A stretch of 64,000 bases of DNA from assembly GCF_056746865.1 (NCBI RefSeq), contig NZ_JBWKMP010000003.1. One strand, given 5' to 3'. Within the stretch, counting starts at the first letter, position 1. Every line of letters starts with the position of its first letter. Of this stretch, positions 12,576 to 60,931 are shown one piece after another. Under the pieces are notes generated by a model that worked only from the letters and a program-made list of their open reading frames with translations, had not been told where the DNA came from and made no database searches. The translations under genes were made by a program, and so were the position numbers. Origin of the DNA: a plasmid.

Positions 12576-12604
12576 TTGATCTTTCTAATGTTCAGGCTTA
12601 TATT
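12576..12604 (+). promoter_or_regulatory. Sigma70-like promoter with an operator motif in the spacer, driving the immI-like module 1
   Basis: TTGATC, 17-bp spacer containing tttctaatg, then TATATT. Confidence 0.45.
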
Positions 12605-12611
12605 CATGCCG

Positions 12612-12850
12612 TCGTAGCAAATTCTGCGACCAGGTTTGACAGCCTGAATACTTACGCGGACAACCGCACATTTCCGATATTGCGGTATTTTTGTGTCCGT
12701 AAAACCACGTTACGCCCGAATTATGGTGGGGCGTGATGGGGAGGCTTCGGCCTGCTGGTTTCGTAAGTGCCAGTCTGTCAACCCTGTCACGTCCTGCCAC
12801 CTGTTTGACAGCGGGTCGCAGGTTGTTTATCAACTTACGAGGCCGTAACT
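12612..12850 (+). ncRNA. Candidate c4-like antisense RNA / structured leader upstream of the icd-like gene
   Basis: About 240 nt without an ORF between promoter and icd-like start; tttgacag (12632, 12811) complementary to ctgtcaac (12773); P1 immI uses a C4 antisense RNA at the equivalent position. Confidence 0.35.
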
Positions 12851-17600: not shown

Positions 17601-20600
17601 CAGCAAGCTGTCTTTAATGCTGTGGAAATGGGGCGTCTTGACCTGGCGTCTGGTAAACACCGTGATGCGCAGAAGAAGAACAAGATTAAGGATCAGGCCG
17701 CGAATACCGGTACAACGAAGAAGCAGAATATCCCGTACTTTGAGGATATGAACTTCGATAGCGTGATAGCCGACGAGGGGCATAACTACCGCAACTCCTT
17801 TAATGCCGGGCGTGAAGCGGGACAACTGGCATATTTGCCTAACCCGGCAGTATCCAAGATGGCCCGCGACATGGCTGTAAAAGCTGCGTACATGATGAAA
17901 CGCAACAACGGGCGTGGTGTAGTCATGCTGACGGCAACACCGCTGGTGAACAGTCCGATTGATGCCTTCAACATGCTGTCTACTGTCATTCCGCAGGAAG
18001 AGTGGATGCGCATGGGCATCATTACGCCTGATGATTTCGTTCGTGTGTTTGGTAAAACAGCCACAGTTCAGGTCCAGAAAATTTCCGGGGAAGTGGAAGA
18101 GAAGCAGGGGCTGGTTGGCTTCCAGAACCTTGATGGCCTGCGTGGTATTTTCCATCGCTGGACTACTCTGAAGACTGCTGCGGACGTCGGGGCGACGGTT
18201 AAAATCCCTGATATTGTCGAGAATACCTTGCAGATCCCGATGACAGGGGAGCAGGAGGCTGCTTATGAAGAGCTTCGTAAGCGTGCACAGGAGTTAAGTA
18301 GTAAAGATGCGCTGACGGTTGATGAAAACGGGCATATCACAAACGAAAAACCGGATGATTTCATCTTCTCCATCATCCGCGACATGGATAAGGTTGCTAT
18401 AGATCCGGATCTGTATGCCAGTGCGATTACATTCCAGTTCCCCGTTGAGCTTGCAGACAAGGTAAAAGCTATTGCTGATGCCCTGCCAAAAGTAGCTGGC
18501 GGTAAAGTGGCAGATGATGCAGACGAGGCCGAAGAAGACGGCGCTGGTGGGCTGGTTAGTACGCGCACCAGTAAGGTAGTGAAGACCACCTTTAGTGAAC
18601 ATCCGGCGCATGTTGAAATACGTGCCAGCATTGAACTGGAAGCTGAAATACTGAAGGCCATTGCTGCCGCCGGGATTGATATGCAGCAGGTATCACACCC
18701 AATCCCGCCGAAGTATGCCGCGCTGATCGAAAACCTTCGTGAAGGTCTGAAGAACGGTAAACAAATTGTCTTCATTGATGAAAAAGCCCAGCACCAGAAG
18801 CTGCGCCGTATTATCGCCAGTGCACTGCAAATGCCGGAGCAGGAGATAGGCATTATCAATGCGACGACCGTTAGCCAGGCTGGCGGCATCAAGCTGAAGA
18901 AGGTGAATAAGCCGACTGAACCTACTCCGAATAAAAACGGTGAATACAAAGAAGGGGCATGGGAAACCTACTACAGCAAACTTGCCCAATATGAGGATTA
19001 TCTCTCAGCTAAAAATGATGCTGGCCTTGAGGGTATGGAAGGCATTGCCGCCGACTATAACGAAGGGCGCACGCGCATAATTATCTGTAACAAGAAGGCT
19101 GAAGTAGGTATTAACCTGCATATCGGGACAACCGATATCCACCACCTGACACTACCCTGGACACCAGCCAGTATCGACCAACGAAATGGGCGCGGTGCGC
19201 GCGTAGGTTCACCGCAAGAGAAGGTCAATGTTCACTACTATTGTGGCAAAGGCACATTCGACGACTTCCGTCTGGATACGCTGAAACGTAAGAAAGACTG
19301 GATCAAGATGGTAATGACCTCCGACATGTCAGAGATCGCCAATGGTGATGCGGATGATGCTGATGAACGCGCCATTATGCTGGCGGCAAACCCGGAAGAA
19401 CGCCGCGCAATCATGGCTCGCCAGGCGCAAGAGCGTGAAGAACGTCTGAAACTGAAAGCACAGCGCGAGGCCAACAATGCTCTCGATATCTACCTGAAAG
19501 CGGCAAACGCCGCTGGAAAAGATATCGGCATGATGGAGACAGAACTGAAAAGCGCGATGGAACAGATAGAGTATTACCAGCGAAATCTTGACGACCTGAT
19601 AAAAGCGGGTACGAACAGGAATGGGCAAAAATTCGCGCTTGAGCAGTTGAGTAGCTACAGAAAACGTGCGCGGGTGCTGCGGTTTGCGATCACCAGGGCA
19701 AAAGACGCGGATACCATAATGAAACGCTCTCGTGGTGATGTGGAGCGCGCTATTAAGTCTGGTGTGCTGGATATCAGTATCGATGTTATTCAGAACCCAC
19801 AGGAATATATGCGCACTGACAAGAATATCCTGTTGCATAAAGGTAGTTATTACCGTGCAGTCATTGATGATCGCGAAACAACAGCGATTGTCCGGGTGGA
19901 AAAAATTGACGGTGAAAAAGCACAATACCTCTGCCGTATCGCCTGGCTGGATAGAGCAAGTCGTTACGCTCGATCACCGGGGTCAATCGTTACATTGCCG
20001 TTTGACTCTGTGATTGAAGCGGTAACTTTTGAAGAGGGGGTAGCTGAATCGCGCGCAACGGCTGCGCGTGGTGTTCAGTGCCACCAGCTATCAACAATAC
20101 TTACTCGCGATCAGTTCTATGATGCTATTCGCAATGGGGTAATGAATGTTATTGCTGGTAAACCTGGTAATGCATGGGGCGGTGGGTCAGCTATTAAATA
20201 CTGGGCATATCGCACAGATGATGGTCAGATCGCGCTGTCATCGGCCTATGATGGCGTGATAGGCCAAAAAATCGGGCGAGCATCGGATATAGCACCTGAA
20301 CGATGGATATATCCAGATGGCAACGATGAGGCGCTGAAGCGTGAAGTGGCAAAAATACAAGCCAGTGATAACCCGCTGAATATCGTGGACGGCGAGGGAT
20401 TCCTCCAGGCATTGTATGGGTATGATTACATCCAGGGAATGCAGGCATGGGGCGCACAGGCAACGATGGATGATGTTGTCCAGGAGTTCGAAAACTGGAT
20501 GGCTGGGCGTGGTCTGTCAGGTCGTTCGCTTAATAAAGTCACTTCTGAAGATATTCTTAGCTTGTTCCGCAAACCGTCCGGAGAAGGTCTGGAATCATTC

Positions 20601-54496: not shown

Positions 54497-54602
54497 GAAA
54501 ACACACAGTTGCGCCCTGGCATTATCGTGGGGTATATTTCTACGGCACCTTAGAAAAACGGGTGCCGGGATTGGAACCCCGGATAATGTCAAAGGCGACA
54601 CA

Positions 54603-54624
54603 GACGCCGAACGCGTCTTTTTTT
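54603..54624 (+). terminator. Rho-independent terminator
   Basis: gacgc-cgaac-gcgtc followed by ttttttt. Confidence 0.6.
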
Positions 54625-54639
54625 GTGTCATGCCATCGC

Positions 54640-54809
54640 ACAGCCATACTTAGCGTTTAGCTCAGAGATCAATGGTAGTGCTGGCTGGGCTGCCGAAAGG
54701 CAGGCCGGTTCCCTTTGACGCCGGTAGTTCCAACCCAGTCAGTGCTACCGCCATTGAGATTGGAACCTCACGCGGTAGCTCCTTAACTTAGTCAAAGGAG
54801 GCTGCCAAT
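54640..54809 (+). ncRNA. Candidate c4-like antisense RNA / structured leader of the immI-like module 2
   Basis: ORF-free ~170 nt with long-range complementarity (tcaatggtagtgctg / cagtgctaccgccattga; gttccaa / ttggaac) directly upstream of the icd-like RBS. Confidence 0.35.
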
Positions 54810-55025
54810 ATGGCTACTATCCCTACCCCAACTCATTCTGAATTTATCTGGCGTTTCTATTCCTGCCAAAAACACCTTTATATCTGCGTAATGGCTGCTA
54901 CCGAAGCAGAGGCGCGCTCATACCTTCCCGAAGAACCCTGCATTTTTGCTGCTCGCTTCACTCTTGATGCGATGGAGATCCTCAATTACTGGAATCTGCC
55001 AATGAACTGCGTGGAGGTGCACTGA
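54810..55025 (+). CDS. Icd-like small protein (immI-like module 2)
   Basis: 71 aa; paralog of 12851-13075; stop overlaps the ant-like start. Confidence 0.55.
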   Translation: MATIPTPTHSEFIWRFYSCQKHLYICVMAATEAEARSYLPEEPCIFAARFTLDAMEILNYWNLPMNCVEVH

Positions 55026-55966
55026 TGAATCTGTCCATCTCTCAAAAAGCGACAATGACCAGCATTGAGATCGCGGAACTGGTAGGAAGTCGCCCAGATA
55101 GTGTGAAGAGAACTATCGAAACACTGGCTAAAAAGAGTGTGATTCAATTTCCACAATCTGTGGAAATTGAAAATAAACAATCAGTTGGCCCTCGTCGATT
55201 TTCCAAGGCTTACATCTTTGAAGGCGAACAAGGAAAACGAGACAGCATCATTGTCGTCGCGCAGCTCTCTCCGGAATTTACCGCCCGGCTGGTGGACCGC
55301 TGGCGCGAACTGGAGAATGCCCGGGTACAGTTAAAATCCAAAGCCGAAATCCTGGCCGAAATGGCGCAAATGCATCTTGAGCATGAACGCCGGATCAACG
55401 CCGTTAATGCCCAGGTAGCCGAAGTATCGGCACAAGTGTCCAGGGTCACCGAAACACTTGAGCAGATCAAGAAAGGCAATATTCCAGAAGGCTACATTGG
55501 CTATCGCCAGTTGGCGGCAAAATGCGGCCTGACTGAAGCCAAATGCCGCAACCTGGTCAACGCTTACCGGATACCCACTGATACGCATGAGTTTTTAACT
55601 CCCGACGGTTTGCTTGCGCGACGCTCCATTGTGGCCCTGGCCCCCTTCCGGAAAGCCTTTAAGCAGGTTATGTCGGAGGCAGAACCACGTAACAAACGCT
55701 GGTATCATCCCAGGATGGGGCTATTTCAGGCCATTCACCATCCTGTGCCTGAAAGTCCAAAGGCAAACCTGTCGTTGCATACCGCCAGAGAGAAGATTAA
55801 AACAGGGTATGCAACCGTATGCCGTCGAGCATCCTGGCCTGAAAGTGTCTGGGTATGGCCCGAAAGAGGCTCACGGAAAAACTGGCGCACCATTCGCGAC
55901 GGCAAGATCTGTGCGATTGATTTACAGCCAGAAGATGTAGCAGCGACCGACTGGATTGTTAGTTAA
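55025..55966 (+). CDS. Antirepressor-like protein (Ant/Rha-KilA-type N-terminal region plus C-terminal DUF2829-like domain), intact copy
   Basis: 313 aa; N-terminal and middle regions paralogous to 13075-13782; C-terminus CRRASWPESVWVWPERG ... DVAATDWIVS fits DUF2829. Confidence 0.65.
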   Translation: MNLSISQKATMTSIEIAELVGSRPDSVKRTIETLAKKSVIQFPQSVEIENKQSVGPRRFSKAYIFEGEQGKRDSIIVVAQLSPEFTARLVDRWRELENARVQLKSKAEILAEMAQMHLEHERRINAVNAQVAEVSAQVSRVTETLEQIKKGNIPEGYIGYRQLAAKCGLTEAKCRNLVNAYRIPTDTHEFLTPDGLLARRSIVALAPFRKAFKQVMSEAEPRNKRWYHPRMGLFQAIHHPVPESPKANLSLHTAREKIKTGYATVCRRASWPESVWVWPERGSRKNWRTIRDGKICAIDLQPEDVAATDWIVS

Positions 55967-55978
55967 TAGATTTGCCCC

Positions 55979-56000
55979 GGTCATGCCGGGGCTTTAACTA
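55979..56000 (+). terminator. Terminator-like hairpin after ant-like
   Basis: gccccgg-tcatg-ccggggc followed by ttt. Confidence 0.5.
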
Positions 56001-56004
56001 CTAA

Positions 56005-56343
56005 GTGACCGGACACAGCAAAATGTATGCCACGAAAAAAATTGATTTCACTTATTCTTCCGCCACAATTGAGCGGCGCTTCACCCTCATTAGAGAGTTG
56101 GAACTGTCAAAAGTCTGGTATCAAATTCTACTGGATGAAGAGTTCTCACTGATGATAATGGCTGAAAAAGAAGCAATGCCGAATGACCGGCATAAAGTCA
56201 TTGCCAGCCTTGACCTGGTGACAAACAGATACTGGGAGACAGAGGAACTGCGTGAAGCGGGAGTAATTCGTGACCTGATGGAGAGTTCCGTTCCCCGCCG
56301 CTATCGTGCGGGAAACGAAATCTCCGTGATTAAAGGGGCTTAA
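56005..56343 (+). CDS. Hypothetical protein
   Basis: 112-aa ORF; start uncertain. Confidence 0.4.
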   Translation: MTGHSKMYATKKIDFTYSSATIERRFTLIRELELSKVWYQILLDEEFSLMIMAEKEAMPNDRHKVIASLDLVTNRYWETEELREAGVIRDLMESSVPRRYRAGNEISVIKGA

Positions 56344-56732
56344 AGCTCACCAGCACGCTGTTTTTCAAGCGTAGATTTAACATTGGGCGCTTTCCCTTTA
56401 AAAGAATGGAAAGTGCCACATTTTTCTGTTTTAACCTCGCGCAGAGCTTCGCCATCGGCGTTCTGCCATTGATGAGATAACGTCATATCACCGCGAGAAG
56501 GAACATCCAGCGAGTACAACGTGTAAGTTCCCCCCATCTCGGCATACTCCTGGAACACATAGCTCATTACGTCAGATTCAGTTTTCCGGTGCGCGTTATC
56601 GACCTTATTCCCATTCAGAAATATGGCGTTCGGATAGATTTTTATATCAAACCTACCGCACTTCACTTGTAAATTCCCGGCGTGAGCGATCAAAGGGAAA
56701 GCTGCCAATAAAGCAATAGCTAATCTTTTCAA
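56340..56732 (-). CDS. Secreted hypothetical protein
   Basis: N-terminal signal peptide MKRLAIALLAAFPLIAHA. Confidence 0.55.
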   Translation of the reverse strand: MKRLAIALLAAFPLIAHAGNLQVKCGRFDIKIYPNAIFLNGNKVDNAHRKTESDVMSYVFQEYAEMGGTYTLYSLDVPSRGDMTLSHQWQNADGEALREVKTEKCGTFHSFKGKAPNVKSTLEKQRAGEL

Positions 56733-56752
56733 TTCTGCCTCCGCTGCGTAAC

Positions 56753-57373
56753 TTATTGCCCGTATTGTTTACACCATTGCTCTGCCATTTGTGGGGCTAA
56801 AGGCCCAGCCACTGCGCTGTATTCTGCTGTTTTGCTTTGCACGCATGAGGCAGATGGTTTTTTATTGCGCTGTTCCTTGAGTTGTTTTTCATAGGCAACG
56901 ATGGCATCGAAACCAGCTACATCTTCCTCCCTCATGAACCCTTTCTTGATCAGAAACTGCTGACCTTCCGGCACCAATGCTAGAGCATACAACGGCTGCA
57001 ACAGCTCCCCCAATCCTTCCCGGCTATAAACTTGAAACTGCATCCAGCTTTTACTTAACGCTGTCATAGTGTCTTTGGTGGAATAGCCAGCCTTGCGTAT
57101 AGCCTTGTCTAATCGATCTGCTGAATACGCAAACAAACAGAAATCGCCCTTTCCTGTAAACCCCGGTTCAACCGGTTGCAACGTGATATTTTCTTTTTCG
57201 CAAAAGTCTATAAATTCATCAGGTCTATCGGTTTTATAGTCCCGCAATACCTTCAGTCCAGCCTCATACTTTGCAGGTAACGCGCCTGCATAGGCAGCAT
57301 TAAGAGAAACTCCCCCCAATATAACCGCGAGCACTGCTCCCAAAACCCTTAACTTCACAAAACCATCCTTCAT
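56753..57373 (-). CDS. Secreted or periplasmic hypothetical protein
   Basis: Signal-peptide-like LRVLGAVLAVILGGVSLNAAYA; start may be the GTG at 57358 with RBS aagga. Confidence 0.5.
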   Translation of the reverse strand: MKDGFVKLRVLGAVLAVILGGVSLNAAYAGALPAKYEAGLKVLRDYKTDRPDEFIDFCEKENITLQPVEPGFTGKGDFCLFAYSADRLDKAIRKAGYSTKDTMTALSKSWMQFQVYSREGLGELLQPLYALALVPEGQQFLIKKGFMREEDVAGFDAIVAYEKQLKEQRNKKPSASCVQSKTAEYSAVAGPLAPQMAEQWCKQYGQ

Positions 57374-57587
57374 GTAAACAAACTGAAGTTTTATGTTACA
57401 AAAGCAAACATCTACGCCAAAATGACTTAGGCCAAATTCAGCGCGAATAAAAAAATCAAAAAAATTGTTGACACTATTCTGGAAATCACAATCTGGACAA
57501 AATCCATTGCGCAAACGGCTCCCGTTGAAGGTTCTTTTGACGACTAACTTTCAGCCGATGCGCGGTAGGGAGTCATAACGCCAAAGC

Positions 57588-57612
57588 AGGCCGCCATGTG
57601 CGGCCTTTTTTT
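57588..57612 (+). terminator. Textbook rho-independent terminator with no upstream plus-strand gene
   Basis: aggccgc-catgt-gcggcct followed by 7 T. Confidence 0.6.
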
Positions 57613-57638
57613 GTGCCTGCTATCGTGGAGTAAAAGCC

Positions 57639-58292
57639 ATGCAAAAGATCGCAATATTCAGTCTTTCTACTAACAAGCCGCTGATGGCTACGGCAGTCCT
57701 GAAAGACGGCGCGCTTGTAATTGACAAAGTAAAGCCGCTCCCTGCATCTGCTATTGAACAAAAACGAAAAATTCCACCAGCAATTGCCGAGCTGCGTAAA
57801 AGTGAATTTAAGGTGCTGGTTGACGAAATCACGCCAACCATTTCAGCCGGTACAGGTGCCAGCCAGGTAACATTAAAAACACGGCACGCCGACGGCAGAG
57901 CAGCGATCATTGTCGGCATGGAGAGATACCGGGAGCTGAAACTACAAAGGCTGCTATCCCTGCCTGACAAGAACAAAGGGGCATTTGAGATCCCCGACTC
58001 TATCGTCGATACCGAATACAACGGCAACGGTGAAGAGGTTTATCGAGTTAACTGGCAAGATATCCGACCAGAGCACATCCTGATGATTCTGTGCTGCTAT
58101 GCAACGGTATACCACAATGTTGCCAGCGCGGATTACCTGAAACAAATGACAGGAGCGGTAGAGAAAGAAAACAAAGCAGGGATAATGGCCTCGTTCCTGT
58201 CCATTATCAGCGATCAAAAAGCTAAAGCAGGAAATACCCAACCAAAATCGCTGGCCGGGCAAGTAATTGATGAAGATACGGTGATACTTTAA
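57639..58292 (+). CDS. Hypothetical protein (217 aa)
   Basis: ORF with RBS ggag. Confidence 0.5.
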   Translation: MQKIAIFSLSTNKPLMATAVLKDGALVIDKVKPLPASAIEQKRKIPPAIAELRKSEFKVLVDEITPTISAGTGASQVTLKTRHADGRAAIIVGMERYRELKLQRLLSLPDKNKGAFEIPDSIVDTEYNGNGEEVYRVNWQDIRPEHILMILCCYATVYHNVASADYLKQMTGAVEKENKAGIMASFLSIISDQKAKAGNTQPKSLAGQVIDEDTVIL

Positions 58293-58623
58293 TCAACTCA
58301 GTAGCTTTGTTAACTCCCTTAATACCAGGTAGAAGAGTAACAAAAATACTAACGCCAGTATTTGCGTGGTCAACGAGGCGTTCATAAACAGAACAATTAG
58401 CTTTAACAATTCGAGAATAACGTCCATGTCATTCACACTATTTAATTTTTAATCTACAGCCAGCAAACAATGAAGCTGGCCCCCGCATAAAGATTAATGA
58501 AAGTCACTTGTCACCAGTGAGGGGATTTATGAACCACATCCCCCTGAACTGGTGGACTGTCTGTTTCTCGCATTTCACACCCTGCATACAGTTCCCCCCA
58601 GGTTATGACTGTGAGGAACTGTT

Positions 58624-58953
58624 ATGAGTTACAGCAGGCTCGACGATCGATGCATTGAAGACGATGTGCTGCGCGCACTATTCCATCAGGAGATGATCAA
58701 GCGGGTATCGGAGTACCACTCCGATAATTTCCAGTACACGATAAAAATTGATGAGGTTTATCGCTCAGACCTGGCGGCCTATCGCGCCTATGGCAACGCT
58801 GATTTGCGCTGGGTATTTCGCGTGCTGGTGGGCCATGAGTCAGAAATGGAAGAAATGCCGGTCGGGACAACGTTAACTCTTCCTGACGCAGCATGGCTAA
58901 GAAACAAGATTCGCGATTACGCTGGCTCGGCACCGGAGATAGAAAATGCCTGA
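58624..58953 (+). CDS. Hypothetical protein (109 aa)
   Basis: ORF overlapping the next gene start. Confidence 0.5.
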   Translation: MSYSRLDDRCIEDDVLRALFHQEMIKRVSEYHSDNFQYTIKIDEVYRSDLAAYRAYGNADLRWVFRVLVGHESEMEEMPVGTTLTLPDAAWLRNKIRDYAGSAPEIENA

Positions 58954-60142
58954 CTTCCTGAAAAATCAGGACGGGCGATATATCACTGACGGCCTGTCCT
59001 CTAAGGATTTCACACGCGTATTTGAACTCATCAGGAAAGAGCAAAACCGCAAACGCCGCCAGGCGAACAGGACACTCACGCCGGGCAGGCTTAGGAATAA
59101 ATCAGCCGAAGACATTCTTAAGCTGGGGAAAAAGAAAGGCGGCACGTTCTTTACGCGTGACGATCTGAAAGGCTTCGAAAAGCTGCGAAGCAAAGCACGC
59201 GAAAAATATGACAGCAAGACGGCTGGCATTACATACGCACAACTGGTAGCGTCCAGCCAGGCTATCGATATTAAGCGAGCAAATAACGCCGTAGACGACG
59301 GTTCTGGTATCAAAAGAGCTACGCCCGTATCTCTTCGTCACAATGTGATTAATATCCGCGTGGAAGCGTCCGATATATCCGTTCACCAGCACCACATTGT
59401 CCGGGTACGTTTTGAAGAATGGGATCAGATGGTCGATGACATCGCAGAAGACGATAAATCAGCCCTGAAAGTCACAAAATCACTGTGTGCCGGGCGAGTG
59501 TCTTTCGACTGTGACTGCGGTCGCCATCAATACTGGTATCGCTACATCGCCACTGCGGGTAACTTTGCCCTGGCCCCGCCAAAAGAATACGCCTATCCAA
59601 AAGTTCGCAACCCTAAGCTGCAAGGCGTCGCCTGTAAACATGTGATCCACTCAATGACACGACTACAGTCTGCCAGTTGGCAGATGAGTATTGCTCGTGC
59701 GCTACAAAAGGCTGCAACGCAAATTGCATTTGGTGACGATCGCCGCCGTACAACCAAACACTTCTCAAAAGAAGACGAGAAGGAGTTTAATCGCAATCGT
59801 AGCAGTAAAACGAACGTTGAAGCCGCCAAACGCGAATGGAGGCTCTATCAGAAGCGCCAGGCAGCTTTAAGTACAAAACTGGCGAAGGACAACGGCAAGA
59901 TCGACAAGCTACGTGACCAACTGACCAGGGCCAGAAAGTTGTCAGACGCACAGAAAAAACGAGCGGCAGCAAAAGAAGCGGCCTTGCAACGTGAGAAACA
60001 GAAAAACAAGGAGCTTCAGCAACGCCTTGCCGATCAGTTCGCACTGAAGAAGCAGGCGTTCATTGATGCGCTGGTCATGGCAGGAACGTCACCTGGGCAA
60101 GCTGAAAAAATGTTTATGGAGTACGTGAAGAAAGGTTCTTGA
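58946..60142 (+). CDS. Hypothetical 398-aa protein with a Cys cluster and a basic coiled-coil C-terminus
   Basis: CAGRVSFDCDCGRH motif; KR-rich coiled coil. Confidence 0.5.
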   Translation: MPDFLKNQDGRYITDGLSSKDFTRVFELIRKEQNRKRRQANRTLTPGRLRNKSAEDILKLGKKKGGTFFTRDDLKGFEKLRSKAREKYDSKTAGITYAQLVASSQAIDIKRANNAVDDGSGIKRATPVSLRHNVINIRVEASDISVHQHHIVRVRFEEWDQMVDDIAEDDKSALKVTKSLCAGRVSFDCDCGRHQYWYRYIATAGNFALAPPKEYAYPKVRNPKLQGVACKHVIHSMTRLQSASWQMSIARALQKAATQIAFGDDRRRTTKHFSKEDEKEFNRNRSSKTNVEAAKREWRLYQKRQAALSTKLAKDNGKIDKLRDQLTRARKLSDAQKKRAAAKEAALQREKQKNKELQQRLADQFALKKQAFIDALVMAGTSPGQAEKMFMEYVKKGS

Positions 60143-60176: not shown

Positions 60177-60557
60177 TCATACACCAACCAGGCTTTCAAG
60201 AGGAATGCCAAACTGGGAATGTAAACGACGAATCATAGGTAACGTTAAATTTCGTGTTCCATTTAGCACTTCGTAAACACGATTTGACTTACCAATCGCC
60301 GGTTCCAGATCCTTCACGGTCAGCCCTTGCTGTTCCATACGGAATTTAATGGCCTCAATAGGTGATGGTGGCTCAATTGGGTAATGTTTTTTCTCGTACT
60401 CCTCAATGAGAAGACACATGACCTCAAAGAAATCACCTTCCGGGGTGTTCATTTCCGGTTCGTTATCGAACATCGGTTCGACCGCACGCAGTGCGGCCTC
60501 ATAATCTTGTTCTGTACGGATAGGTTTAATGTTCATTAATTCCAAAGGAAAGCCCAC
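60177..60557 (-). CDS. Long-form HigA-family HTH antitoxin-like protein, no adjacent cognate toxin
   Basis: C-terminal HTH GKSNRVYEVLNGTRNLTLPMIRRLHSQFGIP and N-terminal PIRTEQDYEAAL region typical of the longer HigA-type antitoxins. Confidence 0.5.
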   Translation of the reverse strand: MGFPLELMNIKPIRTEQDYEAALRAVEPMFDNEPEMNTPEGDFFEVMCLLIEEYEKKHYPIEPPSPIEAIKFRMEQQGLTVKDLEPAIGKSNRVYEVLNGTRNLTLPMIRRLHSQFGIPLESLVGV

Positions 60558-60592
60558 TTGTTAAGTGGGCTTTTTGTATGTGTTTAACTATA

Positions 60593-60931
60593 TCAGGCTG
60601 CTTTTTTATTCAGGTTCCGCTGAGAAATAAATTTTTCAGCAGTATTGATACGACTTAACTCTTCCTGAACGCGCATATCATTTTCGACTTCCCACAGGTC
60701 TACTGCGGTCTGAAGATTAATCCAAAAATCTACAGAAGTATCGAATGCTTTTGCCAGGCGATATGCCATATCCATCGTTAGCTTACGATTGTTATTAACA
60801 AGAGCACTTACGGTGTTACGATGAACATGAAGTATTTCTGCTAACTCGTTGATCTTAAGCTCTAACGGCTCCAGGTATTCGTACAGCAGGATATCACCTA
60901 CAGTCGTCGGTTTTCTGGTTGCCTGTTTCAT
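60593..60931 (-). CDS. higA: HigA antitoxin (Xre-type HTH)
   Basis: TVGDILLYEYLEPLELKINELAEILHVHRNTVSALVNNNRKLTMDMAYRLAKAFDTSVDFWINLQ matches the HigA antidote family; directly downstream of higB. Confidence 0.8.
   Translation of the reverse strand: MKQATRKPTTVGDILLYEYLEPLELKINELAEILHVHRNTVSALVNNNRKLTMDMAYRLAKAFDTSVDFWINLQTAVDLWEVENDMRVQEELSRINTAEKFISQRNLNKKAA

Follow-up and report, generated by a model that had tools for sequence, protein, structure and literature searches.

A conserved three-way-junction RNA ending in a terminator hairpin precedes the mat gene in P1-family phage-plasmids

In phage lambda, late gene expression passes through a gate composed of the PR' promoter, the 6S RNA, the tR' terminator and Q antitermination, with a short terminated RNA as the default product. 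The late promoters of the P1 family are, as far as known, activated by Lpa rather than by antitermination. Here we describe an RNA element upstream of mat ("maturation control") on a plasmid stretch of 64,000 nucleotides (nt), which as a whole is referred to as the window (NCBI RefSeq assembly GCF_056746865.1, contig NZ_JBWKMP010000003.1). The element, located at 57507-57613 on the plus strand, is a conserved structured RNA that ends in a terminator and is attached to mat; what we say about its action beyond this we infer. The most fitting description is that of a new RNA family within a known type, i.e., a phage 5' leader with an intrinsic terminator. In our preferred reading, to which we assign a probability of about one half, the interval would be a cis-acting 5' leader or attenuator that gates transcription into mat, with the junction as a binding platform.

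Compared to the lambda PR'-tR' region, this leader presents the same succession of a (here predicted) lytic-phase promoter and an intrinsic terminator within ~100-200 nt, placed before late genes. However, neither a Q-like protein nor a qut-type site was identified here, and while the lambda 6S RNA has no required fold, the leader contains a conserved, covarying three-way junction. HK022 put and lambda nut are also promoter-proximal structured RNAs, modular with respect to terminators and acting in cis on polymerase, as the leader would be; as compared by description rather than by sequence, HK022 put consists of two tandem stem-loops, whereas a closed three-way junction is present here. Attenuators (riboswitches, T-box leaders and PyrR/TRAP/BglG-type systems) likewise combine a structured 5' leader with an intrinsic terminator before an open reading frame (ORF), but no mutually exclusive pairing, known aptamer or protein-binding motif was found in the mat leader.

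The 401 bases around the terminator are 99-99.5% identical to ~14 E. coli plasmids of 89-95 kb and 82-86% identical to 83 further plasmids and phage D6. A close D6-type version of the leader occurs in 99 of 5,426 complete E. coli genomes and is plasmid-borne in every case. In annotated relatives, the locus lies in 265 bp of intergenic DNA that separate a divergent simB-like gene (minus strand) from mat (plus strand); icd/ant, ref, the tail genes 26/25 and a HigBA module are nearby. The window is thus a D6-like phage-plasmid of the P1 family.

Minimum free energy (MFE) and centroid folds of 57507-57613 agree on an element of two modules, in which the terminator hairpin represents the 3' module and is separated by a 6-nt linker from a three-way-junction RNA that represents the 5' module. 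The parts of the element, and the gene that follows it, are:

57509-57581, plus strand: three-way-junction RNA
57509-57514 (GCGCAA) with 57576-57581 (UAACGC), plus strand: P1a, first part of the closing stem
57517-57523 (GGCUCCC) with 57568-57574 (GGGAGUC), plus strand: P1b, second part of the closing stem
57526-57533 (UGAAGGUU) with 57546-57553 (AACUUUCA), plus strand: P2, a hairpin with a 12-nt loop
57534-57545, plus strand: L2, the 12-nt loop of P2, CUUUUGACGACU
57554-57557 (GCCG) with 57563-57566 (CGGU), plus strand: P3, a small hairpin of 4 bp
57559-57564, plus strand: GCGCG(G) motif at P3 and the three-way junction
57588-57612, plus strand: intrinsic terminator (stem 57588-57594/57600-57606, loop CAUGU, U-run 57606-57612)
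57639-58292, plus strand: mat, 217 aa, with ribosome-binding site GGAG at 57627-57630

The terminator stem (57588-57613 reads AGGCCGC-CATGT-GCGGCCT, then TTTTTTG) contains 7 pairs, 6 of which are G-C, and closes a loop of 5 nt; the T-run at 57606-57612 comprises 7 T, the first of which is part of the stem closure. The hairpin alone folds with -13.1 kcal/mol (z = -2.6 as compared to shuffles). A G+C-rich stem-loop followed by a U-run on the transcribed strand is the arrangement of an intrinsic terminator, and transcription would be expected to terminate at the U-run in vivo. The first-pass annotation of this DNA, made from the letters alone, had described a strong 7-bp GC-rich stem plus T-run just before the start at 57639, and both the structure and the position hold, with 26 nt between the end of the T-run and the mat ATG. 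It had also called the hairpin an orphan with only minus-strand genes upstream. This description is accurate, as among 12 strong terminator candidates in the window only this one lacks a same-strand ORF end within 300 nt upstream and has a same-strand ORF start within 200 nt downstream, and as the two nearest upstream genes are both on the minus strand:

56753-57373, minus strand: simB-like gene, nearest gene upstream of the leader
56340-56732, minus strand: second-nearest upstream gene

No second leader terminator was found among the 12 strong candidates in the window. As the upstream gene is divergent, the hairpin can not be the terminator of an upstream operon in D6-type phages; in Cronobacter phage JK004, a separate terminator is present upstream of the promoter. 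Terminator-like patterns are common, however, as a consensus scan found 4 such sites per 2 kb when 2.5 were expected, which would be compatible with a chance hairpin or with a site acting at the DNA level (i.e., a protein-binding site or a cruciform). While the pattern alone is thus not above chance, this hairpin is, because of its conservation, its compensatory changes and its position relative to ORFs.

An alignment of eight diverse homologous intergenic regions showed a nearly invariant block at ~57507-57613, which persists in an Enterobacter hormaechei plasmid whose upstream sequence is unalignable. When compared to D6-type plasmids, the RNA block is 96% identical, as opposed to 77% for the upstream 133 nt and 60% for the 25 nt down to the ATG. 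A covariance model built from five sequences carrying the three-way-junction and terminator structure retrieved the leaders of relatives with Mat proteins only 45-55% identical. In the model-fitted alignment (A7), 90% of cells formed standard pairs, as compared to 32-50% with slid partners, and double-sided changes were observed in 19 of 32 pairs, a number matched by 0 of 500 shuffles. As an alignment fitted to the model is biased towards its own structure, the count was repeated on a structure-blind MAFFT alignment (A9), where 81.9% of cells were paired (38-53% with slid partners) and 13 pairs showed double changes (matched by 4 of 500 shuffles). RNAalifold run on the MAFFT alignment predicted P1b, P2 and the terminator de novo; covariation support was weakest for P3 and the first pair of P2. 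For the terminator, every cell of the model-fitted alignment was paired, with compensatory changes at two pairs, and the E. hormaechei plasmid carries the compensatory change AAGCCGC/GCGGCTT. The check by fold prediction and conservation that had been proposed together with the hairpin thus supports it, and places it within a larger covarying RNA. Moreover, many G-U pairs are valid on the plus strand only (the minus strand would give A-C mismatches), and the element is thus an RNA in the sense of mat. The plus-strand G-U covariation and the pattern of conservation, along with the recurrence of the element before mat in distant phages, effectively refute a chance hairpin or a DNA-level site.

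To assess more distant relatives, Mat homologues were gathered from phages, viral contigs, genomes and the protein database, and the upstream DNA of twelve distant homologues was compared. P1, JK004, L229, L102, L105 and probably L103 (Mat identity 30-35%) share one order of elements, i.e., a -10 element, a three-way junction, a linker of 10-30 nt, a GC hairpin with U-run, a ribosome-binding site and the Mat start; the junction begins within a few nt of the predicted transcription start. The closing stems of P1, JK004, L102 and L105 are unrelated in sequence (GCCCGGUAC/GUACCGGGC, AGCCCGGUGC/GCGCCGGGCU, UUCGG-CAUU/AAUG-CCGAA). L2 is the best-conserved unpaired segment, and reads UUUUGRC in D6-type leaders and YCUUUUCAAAY in the P2 loops that P1-type leaders share. 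The GCGCG(G) motif is invariant in D6-type leaders (alignment columns G54, C55 and G56 are invariant, G58 and G59 nearly so) and is also found in JK004. The covariance model of the D6 type did not detect the P1-type leaders, so that the equivalence of the two types rests on single-sequence folds and inspection rather than on a joint statistical model. In all junction-bearing leaders, a U-run of 6-7 follows a stem of 6 G-C pairs plus a closing A-U pair, and the end of the U-run is located 10-26 nt from the conserved Mat start, with L094 (69 nt) as the sole exception.

The upstream neighbour of the leader varies among relatives (a divergent simB-like gene, ref, Rep3, HEPN, TIR or Peptidase_S24), and all further metagenome matches of the model have a Mat ORF downstream. 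A search for metagenomic copies with a degenerate DNA pattern returned mostly noise (4 of 80 loci were true), and scans of genome contigs and viral sequences added almost no further leaders. We also considered whether second copies might form a regulon; the covariance model found a single copy in the window and a single copy in 92.6 kb of a 99.5%-identical 94-kb sister plasmid. The original suggestion for this interval was a small RNA or a transcriptional attenuator for the downstream gene, and a selected, strand-specific structured RNA tied to mat fits both parts of it. As a small RNA (sRNA), the terminated transcript of ~105 nt would act in trans during the lytic phase, with L2 or the linker as seed, while mat would be expressed by residual read-through. 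The layout agrees with that of sRNAs, as a structured body and a conserved loop with YUNR-like UUGA/UUCA are followed by a Rho-independent terminator with U-tail, and L2 would be a suitable seed in being the best-conserved unpaired segment. However, no L2 target stood out: the sole match of at least 12/15 to the L2 complement in the window was the leader locus itself, and the best non-self L2 duplex in 128 kb (-17.8 kcal/mol) was no better than those of 20 shuffled loops (-17.3 to -23.0 kcal/mol). Furthermore, the RNA was never found apart from mat despite the rearrangement of its neighbours, which a free-standing sRNA gene would not need. We thus consider an sRNA unlikely, and the exclusive, close linkage to mat across rearrangements favors a cis-acting leader, i.e., the attenuator part of the suggestion.

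Four metagenomic or genomic mat loci (L099, L100, L101 and L104; Mat ~34-39% identical) do not contain the junction RNA. These loci present a conserved, strong sigma-70-like promoter (TTGCTGACA...GATACTAATTTTATAAT) ~40 nt from the ATG and keep a hairpin that resembles the P1 terminator stem, without the U-run. As junction and U-run are both absent from these loci, the two appear to come and go together. The retained hairpin near the ribosome-binding site is also what would be expected of a passive 5' untranslated region, which would insulate mat mRNA or protect it from 5'-end-dependent decay, with the terminator as a constitutive, leaky damper that holds Mat at a low level in an unregulated manner. 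A structure that starts a few nt from the predicted transcription start, like 5' stabiliser stem-loops, and the failure to find switch pairing agree with such a passive role. On the other hand, an invariant UUUUGRC and GCGCG, and an arrangement of three helices that persists at a protein identity of 30%, exceed the needs of a stabiliser, and the U-run of 6-7 behind the GC stem is conserved in all junction-bearing leaders. Overall, we regard a purely passive role as improbable.

Two candidate promoters and one isolated hexamer are located between the simB-like gene and the RNA:

57420-57438, plus strand: candidate late promoter A, AAATGACTT-AGGC-CAAATT, with predicted start near 57445
57468-57473, plus strand: TTGACA hexamer, 115 nt before the terminator stem and preceded by an A-rich tract (57445-57467)
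57483-57503, plus strand: candidate promoter B, with box AAATCACAA at 57483-57491, -10-like CAAAAT at 57498-57503 and predicted start at ~57509-57511

The box of promoter A matches the -22 box of P1 LPmat (AAGTGACTT) at 8/9 positions with the correct spacing, at a distance of 70 nt upstream from the conserved RNA; the block TGAYTTAGGCCAAWT at this candidate is conserved in E. coli and Salmonella D6-like plasmids. A start at promoter A would prepend an A-rich 5' extension of ~64 nt to the leader RNA. The box of promoter B matches AAGTCACTT at 6/9 positions, with a spacing of 4-6 nt, and its -10-like hexamer reads CATAAT in D6; TCACAA at this promoter is invariant even in Enterobacter, where the sequence further upstream has diverged. 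With promoter B, the RNA would begin with the first base of P1a, as is predicted in P1, where the annotated LPmat (box AAGTGACTT, 4 nt, CAGAAT) ends 8 nt before the closing stem. JK004 shares the LPmat arrangement, and the annotated LPmat -10 of P1 and JK004 is located 8-10 nt before the closing stem. Box matches of at least 8/9 numbered 16 in the window as compared to 13.4 expected, i.e., they were not enriched.

The TTGACA hexamer had been noted before as a -35-like sequence ~115 nt upstream of the hairpin with a poor -10, and this is how it was found; no usable -10 is present 16-18 bp downstream (ATCTGG, AATCTG and TCTGGA only). TTGACAC is conserved in D6-type and in L097/L106-type leaders. 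The distance from TTGACA to the conserved -10-like element (CAAAAT, 57498-57503) is 24-25 nt; as a spacing of 24 nt is too long, TTGACA is not the -35 of the CAAAAT promoter. The notion of the interval from TTGACA to the hairpin as the functional unit was also not borne out, as the conserved RNA begins at ~57507-57509 instead. A P1-type C1 operator was not found anywhere in the window with up to 3 mismatches. Perfect palindromic P1-type late-promoter boxes (AAGTCACTT) are present at 20536-20544 and 58501-58509; the latter lies between mat and gene 26 and is followed on the minus strand by TCAT and TAATCT, facing a 47-aa hydrophobic ORF (58436..58293).

In the mechanism that we propose under our preferred reading, a lytic-phase promoter immediately upstream would lead to synthesis of the compact three-way-junction RNA (57509-57581) first. 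The terminator (57588-57612), ~6 nt further on, would then stop most polymerases 26 nt before mat and release an RNA of ~105 nt, and expression of mat would come only from the polymerases that pass this site. The baseplate/tail genes 26 and 25 overlap with mat in most relatives; the leader thus heads a late morphogenesis operon there, and these genes would depend on read-through likewise. As mat was reported to be essential in P1 (PMC10695390), a strong conserved terminator before this gene, and before tail genes in most relatives, suggests that read-through matters. The junction is conserved, does not depend on the terminator and disappears along with the U-run, which makes it the likely control module and, as it folds independently of the terminator, probably a binding platform. 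It would set the frequency of read-through, its partner could be a protein of phage or host origin or the RNA polymerase, and its action would be like that of lambda nut, lambda PR'-tR' or HK022 put rather than by riboswitch-style alternative pairing. More speculatively, and with considerable doubt, the junction might represent a new class of promoter-proximal antitermination RNA, similar to put and nut in action and unrelated to them in sequence and fold. If so, polymerase would be licensed into mat and the baseplate/tail operon, either unaided or together with a late factor of the phage or the host, and an RNA-based checkpoint would be added to P1-family late expression, which has been thought to be based on the Lpa activator.

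Several observations weigh against a gating leader. The 5' start and the 3' end of the leader transcript are predictions from the sequence. Taken by itself, the junction has a weak thermodynamic z-score in the window (-0.9) and a strong one in P1 (-3.6), so that the case in the window rests on the comparison between sequences. A conserved antiterminator helix, or a complement to a terminator arm, was found neither in the window nor in the folds of relatives. In the window and in D6, 330 nt lie between mat and gene 26, and mat alone would thus be clearly gated there. No candidate binding partner for the junction was identified. Mat itself was considered as an RNA-binding autoregulator and rejected, as the protein has no Pfam domain match and its model resembles terminase and RuvC nucleases. 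L2 was also tested as a boxA, for which the gamma-proteobacterial consensus is GYTCTTTAANA (PMC5725501), and was rejected as well, as the loops of D6-type leaders (GTTCTTTTGAC) and of JK004 (ACTCTTTTCAA) each match at 7/10 positions and lack the critical AA at positions 8-9. Although the start of L2, GUUCUUU, resembles boxA GYUCUUU, L2 is unlike boxA in lying inside a hairpin loop, and neither an N-like protein nor a boxB-like conserved loop was found.

To determine whether the leader belongs to a described RNA kind, it was compared with the 4227 models of Rfam 15, with a covariance-model score at or above the family gathering threshold as criterion. No match at E <= 1 was obtained for 56000-59000, and for 57440-57645 at E <= 10 the best scores were 12-15 bits, as compared to thresholds of 35-70. 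The leaders of P1, JK004, L102, L097 and L044 gave no match either. The same scanning did find the two C4 RNAs, the IsrK-like RNA and three tRNAs of the window. A search of the literature, the P1 genome paper (PMC523184) excepted, gave no account of an RNA leader or a terminator before mat.

A junction with conserved junction and loop nucleotides just upstream of a terminator and a gene start could also represent a small-molecule riboswitch, with the junction as aptamer and the hairpin as expression platform. Against this, no Rfam family matched, no antiterminator is conserved, and the MFE and centroid folds of the window, like the longer-context MFE folds of most relatives, contain both the junction and the terminator. 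The sole alternative helix in these longer-context folds (CCAUCGCGCU with AGCGCGGUAGG) occurs in one subclade and upstream of the likely start, and it is not evident how a metabolite would relate to a gene for virion maturation. A riboswitch is thus very unlikely. Pairing of an A-tract (57456-57464) with L2 or the U-run was also considered and dropped, as it is not conserved in relatives. A leader peptide was not found either, as the sole AUG ORF in the leader (6 codons, at 57559) is absent from D6.

The C4 RNA of P1 and P7 (RF01695; two copies in the window) resembles the leader in phage family, three-way junction, 12-nt loop and upstream position in the same transcript. We thus assessed whether L2 could act as a C4-like antisense element that mimics the b' loop of the second C4 RNA and pairs with the icd ribosome-binding site (GUCAAAGGAG, 54792-54801) or that of mat. 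L2 and this b' loop (54705-54716, UUCCCUUUGACG) have UUUGACG in common, in the same sense, and L2 can form 10 bp (2 of them G-U) with the b2 site of the window and 8 bp with GCAAAAGG of D6. The likeness of the loops may merely reflect pyrimidine-rich, anti-Shine-Dalgarno-like loops, both in three-way-junction RNAs. The C4 model (RF01695, clan CL00128) did not match the mat leader at E <= 10, whereas the true C4 copies scored 77.1 and 69.6 bits, and while b' and b2 of C4 covary between D6 and the window, L2 is unchanged. In addition, the P1-type L2 (CCCUUUUCAAAU) has no complementarity to the b2 sites of P1 and P7, and cognate duplexes of L2 with the mat start region (mean -8.7 kcal/mol) showed no advantage over non-cognate ones (mean -9.4 kcal/mol). 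The order of hairpins in C4 is opposite to that in the leader, flanking complementary a/b target sites are not present here, and the leader ends in its own intrinsic terminator, whereas C4 is excised by RNase P. Duplexes of the C4, C4-2 or IsrK RNAs with the leader (duplexfold) were long, non-specific and uninformative. Taken together, a C4-like antisense role of L2 appears highly improbable.

The reference annotation of mat in P1 bears on why the leader may have escaped notice. In the P1 reference record (L009, NC_005856), mat is annotated from 2716 (250 aa), whereas the family-conserved Mat start in P1, as determined from an alignment of Mat sequences (A3), is the ATG at 2827 (213 aa). The 37 extra codons (2716-2827) overlie the structured RNA and the terminator. 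PGAP annotates proteins of 213 aa, and among close relatives of P1 the stretch from one candidate start to the other differs by 1-nt indels. By these alignments, the P1 reference mat ORF is over-extended and hides the leader RNA. The Mat protein of the window is 85% identical to D6 Mat and ~33% identical to P1 Mat. Its AlphaFold model (predicted local distance difference test, pLDDT, 80.8) is nearest to large-terminase nuclease domains and RuvC (Foldseek E ~1e-4; template-modelling, TM, score 0.42-0.46), so that the "maturation control" protein may have a nuclease fold; no catalytic Asp was evident in strand 1 of the model.

P1 is among the most used and best-annotated phages, and P1- and D6-type phage-plasmids are widespread in Enterobacteriaceae; the leader and terminator before mat have apparently been unannotated until now. 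If the leader regulates read-through, it would add a layer of post-initiation control to late morphogenesis, and it would represent a compact, portable terminator-control module. If it merely damps expression, a correction of the P1 annotation and a new RNA family for the databases would still result.

A second annotation in this region also appears too long. In RefSeq relatives, the simB-like gene begins at TTG 57514 (56753-57514, minus strand) and thus overlaps the mat promoter and leader region. With the ATG at 57373 as start, the protein has a typical signal peptide (MKDGFVKLRVLGAVLAVILGGVSLNAAYA), and this is also where conservation sets in; the long form starting at TTG 57514 is thus probably over-extended.

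The window also contains two immI-type modules. The first (12598-12650 and 12719-12804) is a P1-type c4 with a1b1 targets and is 89.5% identical to P1. The second comprises the IsrK-like RNA (54545-54623), the second C4 RNA (54668-54755), an icd-like gene (54810-55025) and ant (55025-55966). In this second module, the b' loop CCUUUGAC matches GUCAAAGG at 54589-54596 and 54792-54799, while at the same places D6 has CCUUUUGC paired with GCAAAAGG. As the C4 loop and its targets covary between D6 and the window, the sequences suggest a different immunity specificity.

Further along the late region, a HigB/HigA-type toxin-antitoxin pair (60177-60931, minus strand) separates the tail genes 26/25 from the tail genes that follow and looks like a moron insertion. 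Rfam places tRNA genes at 26040-26111, 26117-26189 and 26897-26969; a near-identical RefSeq plasmid annotates four (Asn, Thr, Ser and Ile).

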